In this document: positions 28,683 through 30,162 of the stretch, in pieces
How positions within the stretch are numbered: the first letter of the stretch is position 1
How the letters are laid out: the number at the start of each line of letters is the position of its first letter
UHGV virus genome: UHGV-0135480
Direction: 5' to 3' (one strand)
DNA: 41,448 nt
Origin: a virus
Translations under genes and position numbers: made by a program
The notes under the pieces: generated by a model
The model's input: only the letters and a program-made list of their open reading frames with translations
Database searches by the model: none
Told to the model about the DNA's origin: nothing

Positions 28683-28751
28683 TTAAAAGACCCTCTTAAA
28701 GACCTTTTAAAAAGGTAAGTCTCATTTTAATGTAGCTGAGACTAACTACCC
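28683..28751. repeat. conserved 69-bp module, copy 1: 33-bp box plus 7-bp-stem hairpin
   Basis: Box ttaaaagaccctcttaaagaccttttaaaaagg (28683-28715), hairpin agtctca-12 nt-tgagact (28718-28743), then aactaccc. Identical to 30094-30162. Confidence 0.85.
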
Positions 28752-28753
28752 AT

Positions 28754-28813
28754 ACCAGACCCTACCTTACCAAACCAGACCTCACCCTACCCCACCATAC
28801 CGTATACTACCTC
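28754..28813. repeat. pentanucleotide-periodic tract A2, (ACCNN)x12
   Basis: ACC at 28754 + 5k for k = 0-11, with one degenerate unit (ATA at 28804). Confidence 0.85.
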
Positions 28814-28814
28814 A

Positions 28815-28863
28815 TTAAAAGACCCTCTTAAAGACCTTTTAAAAAGGAGCCTCCGAAGAGGCT
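28815..28863 (-). terminator. 33-bp box copy 2 plus GC hairpin with UUCG-type loop: intrinsic terminator for the - strand gene ending at 28875
   Basis: On the - strand, hairpin agcctc-ttcg-gaggct (28863..28848) is followed by CC TTTTT from the box complement. Box 28815-28847 is identical to copies 1 and 3. Confidence 0.55.
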
Positions 28864-28874
28864 ACCTAGTCAAC

Positions 28875-29315
28875 TTAGAAAGGTTTTCTGCGTTGCTTGT
28901 TAATGTTAGCTTTCATAGCAGCTAAGTGGTTTTGCTGTTCAATTAGTCGTGAACGTTCTTGGTGGCTAAGTGCCATAGTGTTCACATTCTCAATTGCTTG
29001 AGTAGCTTGCTTTAAAGCACGACCAATTTTACCAGACATTTTACGTTTTGCAATAGTTGCTTGATGCTTAGGTTCAACCACACGATAACCAACACCCATT
29101 GAAGCAACCAGATAAATCTTCTCTTCTTTAAGAAGCTTCTCAATAAACTTCTCAAGTCGGTTTAGACGTGTAAGCGCATAAGCCTTCATTTCATCTTCGT
29201 ACTTAACAATGTCACCTTGATAAGTTGGCTTCACAATACCTAAGAAGGTGTCCATCTCAGAGTGTGATACAGTGTCACCGTAACTAAACTTTGCTGCTAA
29301 TGCTTTTGTATTCAT
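28875..29315 (-). CDS. hypothetical protein (146 aa), cassette gene 2
   Basis: ATG at 29315, stop at 28875 followed by the hairpin/U-tract; basic helical C-terminus. No motif recognised. Confidence 0.5.
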   Translation of the reverse strand: MNTKALAAKFSYGDTVSHSEMDTFLGIVKPTYQGDIVKYEDEMKAYALTRLNRLEKFIEKLLKEEKIYLVASMGVGYRVVEPKHQATIAKRKMSGKIGRALKQATQAIENVNTMALSHQERSRLIEQQNHLAAMKANINKQRRKPF

Positions 29316-29317
29316 AA

Positions 29318-29905
29318 TTAAACGCTACCTTCTGAAATAACTTCTACAGAAAAACGACCAAAGCGTGGACGCCAATCACCTACACCGCAAAGGTTACCAG
29401 CATTTTCCAGAACCATCAAGAGTTCCTCTTTGGTGATTTGCTCTTCATCGAACATCAAACCAAACTCTACAGACCAATCACGGAAGATTGGACGGTAGCT
29501 CATAACTCGTGCTGTACCAATCTTAACAGATTTAGCATAGATAAAATCTGGATTCTTAGCAAGTTCTTGTGGGTTTGCTGGACAGTTCTTGATAGTCATT
29601 GGGAAGACTACATCTGTCAGCATAATGGCTCGGTCAATTACCTTACCAAGTTTGTTGAGCTTTGCACCAGACTTGATACAAGCCTCAATCATCTCACCGT
29701 TCATAACAAAACCAAGTTGCTCATCGTAGTAACAAGAAGTTACCAGTTGACTTTCTGCTAAGAGCGCATAGTCTTCGTCAGTCTTTTTACGTTTACTGGA
29801 CAGAGACTTGTGATATTTTGTCAGAGGGTTTAATGGGTCTGACAGCGTATCGTTATGGCTCAGGAAAGGACGAGTACCAGTGATTTTGATATTTAACAGT
29901 TTCAT
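29318..29905 (-). CDS. hypothetical protein (about 195 aa), cassette gene 1
   Basis: ORF-track start 29920 is GTG; ATG at 29905 has GGAG 9 nt upstream. Two-nt gap to the downstream gene implies co-transcription. No motif. Confidence 0.5.
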
Positions 29906-30017
29906 AGCATTTAGCTCCACACTTTAGTTGATTGTTAAGTTGTTTGTAAAGAACCCTCAACAGAAGACTCTTTAGAAACTTGGTAGATTTTTAACGTGGC
30001 TACTACCATCCACCCAT

Positions 30018-30092
30018 ACCATACCGAACCTTACCTTACCAAACCAGACCGCGCCTTACCAAACCAGACCAAACATTACTTTACCCTACCTT
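30018..30092. repeat. pentanucleotide-periodic tract B1, (ACCNN)x15
   Basis: ACC (occasionally GCC/ACA/ACT) at 30018 + 5k for k = 0-14; contains the 17-nt subrepeat ccttaccaaaccagacc also present in tract A2. Confidence 0.85.
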
Positions 30093-30093
30093 A

Positions 30094-30162
30094 TTAAAAG
30101 ACCCTCTTAAAGACCTTTTAAAAAGGTAAGTCTCATTTTAATGTAGCTGAGACTAACTACCC
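30094..30162. repeat. conserved 69-bp module, copy 2 (identical to 28683-28751)
   Basis: Box 30094-30126 and hairpin agtctca...tgagact 30129-30154 plus aactaccc; on the - strand the hairpin is followed by TACC TTTTT, so it may act as a terminator or attenuator. Confidence 0.85.

Follow-up and report, generated by a model that had tools for sequence, protein, structure and literature searches.

An exact 69-bp repeat around two small genes of a Felix O1-like phage very probably belongs to a type II VIPR locus orthologous to that of SUSP1

The viral DNA analysed here (the window, i.e. the whole stretch of 41,448 nucleotides of UHGV virus genome UHGV-0135480) is that of a Felix O1-like myovirus (Felixounavirus), and the minus strand of positions 28543-30347 is almost certainly a type II VIPR locus orthologous to that of phage SUSP1. 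Its repeat architecture, with identical constant modules bracketing two small genes, was flagged by a first-pass annotation from the raw sequence alone. The finding is real, yet it is already explained by the VIPR literature: since an ortholog with 97% identity has been characterised biochemically and structurally, the locus adds a member and some population genetics but no new kind of system. For this phage the gain consists of four decoded guides together with candidate satellite targets, and for the family it consists of evidence that the constant modules cause guides to be shuffled and the effector genes to be lost repeatedly.

VIPR (Viral Interference Programmable Repeat) is a recently reported form of RNA-guided DNA recognition with a gapped code that is proposed to predate CRISPR. 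It was first described in 2026 in two bioRxiv preprints (10.64898/2026.04.26.720920, 10.64898/2026.04.26.720927), in which the SUSP1 system is investigated by sRNA-seq, pull-down, binding, GFP-repression and phage defence assays as well as cryo-EM. The type II locus is minimal, with vipr and vap1 as its only two genes and with extended intergenic stretches around them that encode the guide RNAs. Vipr is described as a RAMP homolog of ~20 kDa with an RRM core, a G-loop and a thumb, and the structures show one protomer per 5-nt RNA unit. [quoted passage not shown] Filaments of Vipr on vrRNAs recognise target DNA through the NN dinucleotides, skipping 1 nt each time, and silence competing elements, and vap1 is reported as protection-enhancing (10.64898/2026.04.26.720920,.720927).

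In the window the genomic constituents of such a locus are found, namely a Vipr protein, a two-gene locus, flanking GGY-NN tracts and a structured ~40-nt tail. The two genes are:

29318..29905, minus strand: vipr, encoding a 195-aa RAMP-family (Cas7-like) protein, 97% identical to SUSP1 Vipr
28875..29315, minus strand: vap1, encoding a 146-aa Vipr-accessory protein, directly downstream of vipr

Both open reading frames had been recognised correctly as co-oriented and as lying between the two repeat copies; only their strand has to be corrected to minus. They had also been called genes of unknown function, and this description has to be replaced. The vipr product matches PDB entry 36pp_D (“SUSP1 Vipr protein”) with E = 2.6e-127 and the Vipr family profile with 4.2e-82, its AF2 model (pLDDT 94) retrieves only Csm3/Cas7 RAMPs as top Foldseek folds, and its C-terminus carries a conserved glycine-rich loop. 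The vap1 product is 99% identical to that of the SUSP1 gene at the same position. Pfam contains no domain for either product and PHROGs returns “unknown function” only. As parts of a described RNA-guided system the two genes do not form the moron-like cassette that had been proposed. Outside the Felix-like group Vipr homologs abut GGTNN arrays in ~34 contigs, which were retrieved by a DNA-only scan of IMG/VR for (GGTNN)6GGT followed by a check of the adjacent open reading frame. This means that the (GGTNN)n DNA pattern alone recovers the Vipr family across unrelated viruses.

The repeat itself stands as described, with 28683-28751 and 30094-30162 identical over exactly 69 bp and no further matching bases at the ends. 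Within it the 33-bp box TTAAAAGACCCTCTTAAAGACCTTTTAAAAAGG occurs in exactly three copies in the window (starts 28683, 28815 and 30094, all on the plus strand as the window is written), for which no match is expected according to 100 dinucleotide shuffles with up to 3 mismatches allowed. The reported degenerate copy at 30257-30284 is real as well, and a fourth box-like stretch was found at 29943-29972. All exact direct repeats of at least 30 bp in the 41-kb window are inside these modules. As the genes of the locus are on the minus strand, the 69-bp module has to be read hairpin first and box second; it then comprises the 38-nt 3' tail of a vrRNA, a T-run and a conserved inter-guide box, in this order. 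The boxes are:

30257..30284, minus strand: degenerate box, leader directly 5' of the vrRNA1 tract, which precedes the SUSP1 upstream guide too
30094..30126, minus strand: inter-guide box CCUUUUUAAAAGGUCUUUAAGAGGGUCUUUUAA (33-bp box of the right-hand copy), T-run after the vrRNA1 tail and then the conserved leader of the next guide
28815..28847, minus strand: third exact copy of the 33-bp box, leader of vrRNA3
28683..28715, minus strand: inter-guide box (33-bp box of the left-hand copy), leader of vrRNA4

Across related loci the box always follows a tail or terminator and precedes the next tract; it may act in termination or processing or as promoter. The interval between the two 69-bp copies had been said to hold exactly two genes; besides these it contains the tracts 30016-30090 and 28752-28811, the terminator 28841-28863 and the third box. 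In the complete genome of the near-identical phage TH10 (89 kb, 98% identical) box and period-5 tracts are confined to the VIPR locus.

The most diagnostic feature, which the first-pass annotation lacked, is the period-5 tract, (NNACC)n or (GGTNN)n depending on the strand, that adjoins every box. Four vrRNAs are present, two upstream and two downstream of vipr-vap1, and their tracts from vrRNA1 to vrRNA4 have 19, 15, 12 and 11 in-phase 5-nt units (GGY-NN):

30163..30257, minus strand: vrRNA1 repeat tract, 19 in-phase 5-nt units (DGY-NN), NN code AA GA TT TT GT CA AA GA CT TT GC GA GC CC AA CC GC AA GC
30016..30090, minus strand: vrRNA2 repeat tract, 15 units, NN code AG AA AA TT CT TT AA GC CT TT AA AA TC AT AT
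28752..28811, minus strand: vrRNA3 repeat tract, 12 units, NN code AG AC AT GG AG GA CT TT AA AG CT AT
28625..28679, minus strand: vrRNA4 repeat tract, 11 units, NN code TA TA CT GT AG TA GG TA TT AT TT

The vrRNA1 tract runs over 95 nt without a phase slip and its 19 units exceed the published range of 9-16, and its first three units (AGU, UGU, UGU) may be part of the leader. Identical tracts are carried by phage ASO1B (vrRNA1), by KhF3 and two IMG/VR phages (vrRNA2) and by one further IMG/VR locus (L024; vrRNA3); for vrRNA4 no close copy was found among the other loci examined (best 0.76). Among 70 distinct tracts position 1 is G, T or A but never C, and positions 4-5 are free. Position 2 is G in 99% and position 3 is T in 92% and C in 8%, percentages that are partly set by the tract-calling procedure. 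The first G of GGY is replaced by A or U (T) in 25% of units. Both the NN dinucleotides and the tract length are hypervariable among phages whose flanking genes share 96-98% identity.

This hypervariability bears on a reading at the DNA level, according to which the G-rich period-5 tracts and the boxes form a replication origin or another protein-binding site (iterons, primase sites, R-loop, partition). The locus is indeed part of the replication gene block, with DNA ligase on one side and nucleotide-metabolism genes on the other, a strong promoter is directed into a G-rich non-template strand, and the GenBank record of KhF3 labels a nearby repeat “possible binding site of StbAB”. Iterons, however, would not vary in this way in both sequence and length, with a period of 5 bp neighbouring sites face opposite sides of the double helix, a RAMP protein accompanies the tracts in unrelated viruses, and in the published structures each 5-nt unit of RNA is occupied by one Vipr protomer. 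We thus give this reading hardly any credence. As the tracts are hypervariable and RAMP-linked, an origin, an R-loop, a primase-site array, a G-quadruplex, a Chi-like hotspot and an antisense rut site were all rejected. A protein-sponge or TRAP-like RNA (5 nt per protomer) was superseded by the identification as VIPR. Felixounaviruses have direct terminal repeats of ~0.6 kb (PMC8303462); a packaging site or genome terminus was discarded for the present repeat, which is located ~27 kb inside records apparently opened at the physical end. In the genome paper of Felix O1 the repeats go unmentioned.

Each tract is followed by one of two types of 3' tail:

30125..30162, minus strand: vrRNA1 3' tail GGGUAGUUAGUCUCAGCUACAUUAAAAUGAGACUUACC, hairpin half of the right-hand 69-bp copy
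29982..30015, minus strand: vrRNA2 3' tail of the terminal type GGGUGGAUGGUAGUAGCCACGUUAAAAAUCUACC, the same sequence as after the upstream vrRNA1 of SUSP1
28714..28751, minus strand: vrRNA3 3' tail, identical to the vrRNA1 tail, hairpin half of the left-hand 69-bp copy
28591..28624, minus strand: vrRNA4 3' tail of the terminal type GGAAGGAUGGCAGUAGCCUUAUAAAAAAUCUGCC, kept in all loci including the vipr-less ones

The 38-nt tail of the vrRNA1 type is identical to the SUSP1 tail and shows a 7-bp stem with a possible pseudoknot stem GUAG/CUAC. In 17 distinct variants the hairpin stem is 100% paired with 3 compensatory pairs, and within this covarying stem a 12-nt loop is conserved; the proposed pseudoknot stem is invariant, so that covariation cannot test it. 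In the terminal tail of vrRNA2 the stem GGUAG/CUACC covaries with GGCAG/CUGCC of the other terminal tail. Rfam gives no match in 28400-30500.

The same 69 bp appear twice because one constant module caps two different guides, comparable to a CRISPR repeat. The competing view that their identity reflects a recent segmental duplication or an assembly artefact, without selection, starts from the perfect match over 69 bp at a spacing of 1.4 kb with only 78% identity in the surrounding 175 bp. An artefact is contradicted by the recurrence of this architecture in >100 independent phage genomes; tail and box are present in >100 independently sequenced phages of several genera, and the third box of TH10 differs in one base from that of the window. 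A simple recent duplication, which had been suggested, is unlikely since the guides beside the modules differ and conservation of the modules extends to several genera, and the stem variants carry compensatory changes. The chance of such a duplication or artefact without selection appears negligible. The first-pass annotation was right in suspecting selection, but the selected element is not a mere regulator; it comprises an invariant guide-RNA tail and an inter-guide box.

Transcription signals complete the locus:

30320..30347, minus strand: putative sigma-70 promoter TTGACA-16-TATACT, directly 3' of the DNA ligase stop and directed into the first guide unit
28841..28863, minus strand: intrinsic terminator of the vipr-vap1 operon, AGCCUC-UUCG-GAGGCU followed by CCUUUUU
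28543..28590, minus strand: palindrome with 19-bp arms followed by a T-run, which marks the end of the VIPR locus

The promoter, which is probably used as such, matches 11 of 12 consensus positions and recurs at the equivalent site of all related loci examined, SUSP1 included. The terminator hairpin after vap1 is labelled terminator in the ASO1B record. The palindrome overlaps a promoter (TTGACA-17-TATTTT) of the next gene (28115..28498).

These signals could be taken to mean that the modules are only composite terminator-promoter elements which, as in PeSL cassettes, insulate a two-gene moron, matter solely for transcription and as sites of recombination and have no role as RNA guides. In line with this the hairpin with its T-run is annotated as a rho-independent terminator in ASO1B and the vap1 terminator was picked up by a terminator scan, a strong sigma-70-like promoter precedes the modules, and the presence or absence of the cassette as well as the reshuffling of guides at module boundaries resemble PeSL shuffling (PMC2839356). 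Left unexplained, however, are the 11-19 in-phase GGY-NN units beside every module, the conserved 12-nt loop with its covarying stem and the Vipr homologs beside tracts in ~34 contigs that are not Felix-like. Furthermore, the 97% identical SUSP1 system, according to the preprints, produces such RNAs and uses them as guides. We consider that purely transcriptional reading very improbable and retain the VIPR locus.

By analogy with SUSP1, i.e. from 97-99% protein identity and identical RNA architecture, the function of the locus can be outlined as follows. The four vrRNAs of this phage would be transcribed, processed and loaded, each with 11-19 pentanucleotide units (GGY constant, NN hypervariable) and the invariant structured 3' tail. 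Of signals for their expression the sequence shows a near-consensus promoter and terminator-like tails. Vipr protomers would polymerise on a vrRNA, one per 5-nt unit, the NN dinucleotides would pair with target DNA with one base skipped each time, and the resulting filament would block transcription of competing mobile elements, mainly of the satellite that parasitises these phages.

Natural VIPR guides are reported to target mostly a phage satellite and to have no self-targets (10.64898/2026.04.26.720920,.720927). We applied the threshold of the VIPR paper, 0.80 NN match under the 1-nt skip (xNN) rule, and as positive control a SUSP1 guide was found to match the tape-measure gene of E. coli satellite islands with 0.80-0.83 NN. 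Such islands, flanked by serine recombinases and equipped with Felix-like tape-measure and baseplate genes, occur in 377 of 5,426 E. coli genomes. [quoted passage not shown] The omission was chosen after natural matches were seen to stop there, and if all units are counted the best scores of vrRNA3 and vrRNA4 are 0.79 and 0.77, below the 0.80 of the paper. For vrRNA1 and vrRNA2 no convincing target was found in the 11 satellite variants sampled. Overall, convincing natural targets emerged for no more than one or two of the four vrRNAs. No self-target of the guides reaches 0.80. The exact gapped patterns of vrRNA3 and vrRNA4 including the tail-proximal units have no match in IMG/VR, a null result weakened by the fact that these units are unmatched in natural targets. 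In GTDB genomes the gapped pattern of vrRNA1 has 2 matches, in MAGs of Chloroflexia and Myxococcales, roughly as many as chance would give. A JGI metagenome match of vrRNA3 (23/24 NN) in an ABC-transporter binding-protein gene of an unrelated bacterium with 50% GC was judged to be due to chance. The satellites appear to be devoid of the VIPR tail, since BLAST with tail, box and tracts gave no match in 5,426 E. coli genomes.

In addition, and as a side effect, the constant modules probably serve as substrates of homologous recombination, by which guides are reassorted among phages and vipr-vap1 has been deleted more than once, with orphan guide units left. About half of the related phages are without the two genes, among them EC6, BPS17L1, ST11 and 8 of 22 complete IMG/VR loci, and they keep one or two guide units at the junction. 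The idea of a recombination substrate that could delete the cassette was partly right, and in the comparison with relatives proposed as a check its prediction holds for the most part. In 3 of 5 vipr-less loci with two units the first tract resembles the first upstream guide of vipr-positive relatives (0.88-0.98), and in two of those three (L026 and L030) the second tract resembles the last downstream guide (0.87-0.92). The tracts retained in these three loci agree with the outcome of a deletion between two module copies. Between phages the vipr-vap1 DNA shares 96-98.6% identity, as do the genes flanking it downstream, and hence gives no signal of a recent spread of the cassette. The orphan units, promoter-driven and periodic, may be more than inert scars and could be kept to borrow the Vipr of a co-infecting relative or as a decoy that titrates the Vipr of a rival, a suggestion that we regard as speculative and rather unlikely. 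If it were true, the repeated modules would make the guide set a freely recombining repertoire at the level of the population. Neither orphan guides of vipr-less lytic phages nor the deletion mechanism were found in the accessible parts of the two VIPR preprints.

Among known systems the PeSL (promoter-early stem-loop) cassettes of T4-type phages (PMC2839356, PMC4122927) likewise have repeated promoter- or terminator-like motifs that bracket small gene cassettes, with insertion, deletion and replacement at these motifs seen by comparative genomics. They differ in being transcription signals only, whereas the present module belongs to a guide-RNA gene and recombines as a side effect. Moreover, PeSL motifs are scattered over hyperplastic genome regions and accompany many different cassettes; in TH10 there is a single locus and the module always occurs with GGY-NN tracts. 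The trp leader RNA of Bacillus bound by TRAP contains 11 (G/U)AG triplets with 2-3-nt spacers and resembles VIPR in its triplet with 5-nt period and in an oligomeric protein with one subunit per repeat. TRAP, however, forms a closed ring and controls its own operon through attenuation; no homology is known, nor is TRAP known to target DNA.

With class 1 CRISPR-Cas (Cas7/Csm3 on crRNA) the locus shares the RAMP fold with a glycine-rich C-terminal loop, one protomer per short RNA repeat length, and a variable guide capped by an invariant structured handle. This handle recurs through the array and thus gives rise to the identical repeats that were seen at first. In contrast, VIPR has no CRISPR array, adaptation genes, nuclease or PAM, the information in its guides is interrupted (2 nt in each unit of 5) and DNA is read with a skip of 1 nt, and the system is encoded by a lytic phage. 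In the region itself neither a repeat-spacer array nor cas genes are found, and the RAMP fold is the only Cas-like feature.

The closest relative is the type II VIPR of SUSP1, with the order ligase, promoter, box, tract, tail, vipr, vap, terminator, three times box-tract-tail, and next gene. Its guides number one upstream and three downstream (two and two in the window) and differ in NN code, and its host phage is a Suspvirus and not a Felixounavirus. Both loci are positioned between DNA ligase and a 127-aa gene and share promoter, boxes, GGY-NN tracts, both tail types and guides that flank the genes, and with >90% Vipr identity the locus of the window falls in the SUSP1 VIPR clade.

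The 69-bp module is present twice in the window, at 28683-28751 and 30094-30162, with no mismatch over its 69 bp and no further identity at either end. The 33-bp box, one half of this module, occurs in three mismatch-free copies starting at 28683, 28815 and 30094, and the degenerate copy reported by the first-pass annotation is present at 30257-30284; an additional box-like stretch is found at 29943-29972. Chance would produce no copy of the box even with three mismatches permitted, and all exact direct repeats of at least 30 bp in the whole 41-kb window fall within these modules. 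The two ORFs between the 69-bp copies, 28875..29315 and 29318..29905, were likewise recovered, and they are located on the minus strand; therefore, the whole locus has to be read as the reverse complement. In this orientation the module consists of a 38-nt hairpin element followed by the box, and the locus also contains period-5 tracts, of + strand form (NNACC)n, that were absent from the first-pass annotation. The elements follow each other in this order:

minus strand, first element of the locus: stop codon of the DNA ligase
30347-30320, minus strand: near-consensus sigma-70 promoter, TTGACA-16-TATACT
30257-30284, minus strand: degenerate box, after the sigma-70 promoter
minus strand, after the degenerate box: tract of 95 nt, 19 pentanucleotide units in a single phase
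30162-30125, minus strand: 38-nt hairpin element, after the 19-unit tract
minus strand, after this hairpin element: 33-bp box with a T-run at its start
minus strand, after the box: tract of 75 nt, 15 units
minus strand, between the 15-unit tract and the two genes: hairpin element of a second type
29318..29905 and 28875..29315, minus strand: the two genes
28863-28841, minus strand: canonical terminator hairpin, after the two genes
minus strand, after the terminator: box, 12-unit tract, 38-nt hairpin element (same as the first), box, 11-unit tract
minus strand, after the 11-unit tract: second-type hairpin element, again
minus strand, locus end: palindrome and promoter of the next gene

This palindrome (28544-28590) has 19-bp arms. 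Its centre coincides with the -35 hexamer in the promoter for gene 28115..28498, and a T-run comes after it. It could serve as an operator, perhaps bound by the HTH protein encoded nearby (27610..27939), as a bidirectional terminator, or as both.

The 29 related loci show no exception to this grammar: a promoter comes first, then one to three units of box, tract and hairpin element, and the final unit closes with the second hairpin type. Base frequencies per position in 70 distinct tracts from related phages define the tract unit as D-G-Y-N-N. Position 1 is G (75%), T (15%) or A (11%) and never C, positions 4 and 5 accept any base, and the near-invariance of position 2 (G 99%) and position 3 (T 92%, C 8%) is partly inflated by the tract caller, which demanded GT at a 5-nt period. 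Tracts comprise 6 to 20 units (median 12). Among 17 distinct variants of the 38-nt tail a 7-bp stem is paired in 100% of cells, with three pairs altered on both sides and a score well above shuffled and slid controls. The second stem, GUAG/CUAC, is a candidate for an H-type pseudoknot and compatible with a published one; it is invariant, hence covariation is uninformative here. Rfam contains no family matching the region.

A fixed triplet recurring every 5 nt hinted at a protein polymer on single-stranded nucleic acid, with a protomer for each 5 nt, and therefore IMG/VR was scanned for the bare pattern (GGTNN)6GGT. It gave at least 120 matches, simple microsatellites among them. Many listed contigs outside the Felix-like group carry Felix-like tracts with variable NN, several in tandem, each closing with a contig-specific constant motif. 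Comparison of the ORFs adjoining the listed tracts with both window proteins revealed homologs of the 195-aa protein in at least ~34 contigs outside this group (E ~1e-27 to 1e-3). Most of them directly adjoin tracts and are encoded on the G-rich strand, and therefore protein and tracts form a conserved two-part system. The family of the 195-aa protein comprises 520 proteins in a large database, none of them named and none with a Pfam domain; length is tightly kept at ~190 aa, and the C-terminus has a conserved motif rich in glycine.

Tandem GGTNN tracts with other end motifs were seen in 16 listed unrelated viral contigs (L036, L040, L041, L048, L051, L061, L068, L086, L088, L102, L115, L122, L128, L129, L136 and L151), most of which have a distant homolog of the protein adjacent to the tracts. 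L129 contains 11 tracts, every one closing with GGCAG, L051 nine closing with GGTAA GGTAA GGAAT GGTTT, and L041 seven, separated by 3-nt gaps only and closing with GGTAA GGCTA. Probably these contigs represent other types or array architectures of the system named below.

Among solved structures the family profile matches a single one, chain D of PDB 36pp (“SUSP1 Vipr protein”; E = 4.2e-82), and the 195-aa protein alone matches it with E = 2.6e-127. The AlphaFold model of this protein (pLDDT 94) finds as best folds only Csm3/Cas7 RAMP subunits, which come from type III and type VII CRISPR complexes. VIPR is an RNA-guided silencing system of phages described in two 2026 preprints (10.64898/2026.04.26.720920 and 10.64898/2026.04.26.720927, the latter entitled [quoted passage not shown]). 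According to these preprints, VIPR loci are minimal, with vipr, a RAMP homolog, and an accessory gene vap, and the intergenic regions on either side encode ~100-nt guide RNAs (vrRNAs), each consisting of 9-16 YNNGG repeats and, after them, an invariant 3' tail, which forms a pseudoknot in the SUSP1 clade. On the vrRNA, Vipr protomers assemble into a helical filament. Target DNA is paired by the NN dinucleotides, with one target base, usually at the codon wobble position, skipped each time, and binding represses transcription. It is also stated there that, for SUSP1-clade guides, the natural targets are concentrated in a satellite phage present in E. coli genomes.

The two genes described in the first-pass annotation as being of unknown function are thus vipr and vap1, 97% and 99% identical to those of Escherichia phage SUSP1; since the clade is defined by more than 90% Vipr identity, the window falls within the SUSP1 VIPR clade. 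The SUSP1 locus (KT454805.2) is syntenic with it, and promoter, boxes, tails and terminal tails are common to both. The feature is judged to be functional: a type II VIPR locus that encodes four guide RNAs, vrRNA1 and vrRNA2 upstream of the genes and vrRNA3 and vrRNA4 downstream. The 69-bp repeat is the constant part of guide-RNA genes: the vrRNA 3' tail, a T-run and the conserved sequence that leads in the next guide. Its copies are identical because vrRNA1 and vrRNA3, although different guides, have the same constant cap, the logic by which CRISPR repeats are identical as well. The third box copy is located after the vap1 terminator since it leads in vrRNA3, and the degenerate box after the promoter since it leads in vrRNA1. 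The box itself could act as a termination, promoter or processing signal.

It had been proposed that related genomes might lack the cassette, and both states were found. Of 22 complete IMG/VR loci, 14 have vipr and vap1 and eight lack them; EC6, BPS17L1 and ST11 lack them too, and the genomes without them have only one or two box-tract units between ligase and downstream gene. In the phage database the intergenic region occurs in 231 records and Vipr at ≥90% identity in only 118 Ounavirinae records, so that about half of the relatives are vipr-less. The suggestion that the module mediates cassette deletion is partly borne out: besides the existence of cassette-less relatives, three of the five two-unit vipr-less loci among those examined fit it. 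In L011, L026 and L030 the first tract resembles the first upstream guide of vipr-containing relatives (identity 0.88-0.98), and in L026 and L030 the second tract also resembles their last downstream guide (0.87-0.92), a pattern that would be expected from recombination between the two tail-plus-box modules, the 69-bp copies, with deletion of vrRNA2, vipr, vap1 and vrRNA3. The other two loci, L017 and L021, have no close tract match (≤0.73).

Identical copies of window guides occur in different phages (vrRNA1 in ASO1B, vrRNA2 in KhF3 and two IMG/VR phages, vrRNA3 in the IMG/VR locus L024); vrRNA4 has no close copy among the loci compared. Judged from these sequences, such scattering indicates guide shuffling at the constant modules. 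Cassette DNA is 96-98.6% identical between phages, the same as the downstream flanking genes, which gives no indication that the cassette spread recently and invasively. The closest analogy for recombination as a side effect is offered by the PeSL cassettes of T4-type phages (PMC2839356); membership in this group was rejected, as the motif belongs to an RNA gene and has a single locus in the complete TH10 genome.

The promoter-driven units kept by Felix-like phages without vipr and vap1 can be considered orphan vrRNAs. They are located at L004 3500-3772 (EC6), at 3500-3781 in L005 and L006, and in the IMG/VR loci L009, L011, L015, L017, L021, L023, L026 and L030. The tract of L015 is cleanly periodic (11 units, no miss), and those of ST11 and L023 are decaying (7 units).

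A chromosomal island of ~11-12 kb is found in 377 of 5,426 complete E. coli genomes and is presumably the satellite of Felix/SUSP1 to which the VIPR paper refers. It has serine recombinase genes at its flanks and tape-measure and baseplate genes with ~74-93% DNA identity to their window counterparts (13784-15532). Four examples (L153 7100-19000; L154 3500-19000, larger owing to IS insertions; L155 5900-17800; L156 6300-17800) are inserted in mdtG, in a DUF72 gene or beside wrbA, and also encode a Dam-like methylase or an AP2-type regulator. Window guides were scored against 11 satellite variants. With all units counted the best scores, 0.79 (vrRNA3) and 0.77 (vrRNA4), are just under the 0.80 threshold of the paper. 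With the two tail-proximal units omitted, an exclusion chosen after natural matches were seen to stop there, vrRNA3 reaches 18/20 at L156:7945-7974, an intergenic site ~160 bp upstream of the Dam-like methyltransferase gene. This score was equalled by no guide in a set of 300 shuffles, and it falls to 0.70-0.75 when the skip length is set to 0, 2 or 3. With the same omission vrRNA4 reaches 16/18 in the satellite baseplate gene, equalled by 6 of 300 shuffles, and here the skipped bases are codon position 2. For vrRNA1 and vrRNA2 no convincing target was found in the 11 variants. Exact-pattern scans of large collections returned nothing or chance-level matches. No guide reaches 0.80 in its own genome, in agreement with the VIPR paper, where guides were found not to target the contig that encodes them. 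Targeting is therefore plausible and agrees with the literature, but its demonstration for this phage is weak.

The satellites also contain a box-like sequence, CTTTAAGAGTTTTTAAACAGAGCTTTTAAAG, ~200 bp upstream of a “transposase” gene (L153 12829-12872, L156 11747-11790, L160 1547-1590), which resembles the phage inter-guide box and gave a low-complexity pseudo-match for vrRNA2.

The source phage is a Felix O1-like myovirus (Felixounavirus) with Escherichia virus TH10 as top match (98%), in whose complete genome box and period-5 tracts are confined to this locus. The Felix O1 genome paper mentions neither; in GenBank, parts of the region are annotated as terminator, promoter, “repeat_region” or, as a guess, “StbAB binding site”. 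KhF3 (L001 1930-2095), SUSP1 (L152) and some IMG/VR loci with upstream intergenic regions of 554-710 bp have 150-180 additional bp between ligase stop and vrRNA promoter; the upstream intergenic region of the window is 448 bp long, without this stretch. In BPS17L1 (L005 5764-7140) the DNA polymerase is annotated as two pieces with an HNH homing endonuclease gene adjoining the split; in the window it is one 909-aa ORF (33262..35991). A 27-bp tandem repeat (~2.1-2.4 copies, 21734-21803) within ORF 20759..21931 is probably related to the tail-fibre gene repeats of the Felix O1 genome paper. A period-12 repeat of AAAAGCTTTTTA (2.8 copies, 36119-36151) lies in the intergenic region from which the minus-strand DNA polymerase gene and the + strand gene block diverge; this region is a candidate for a regulatory or origin role.

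As a near-identical ortholog was characterised in 2026, the window locus is already known. Relative to the preprints, several points may be new: the guides decoded for this phage, its 19-unit guide, the satellite site that is a candidate target for vrRNA3, the deletion and shuffling attributed to the constant modules, and the orphan guide units of vipr-less Felix-like phages. All of them are modest.
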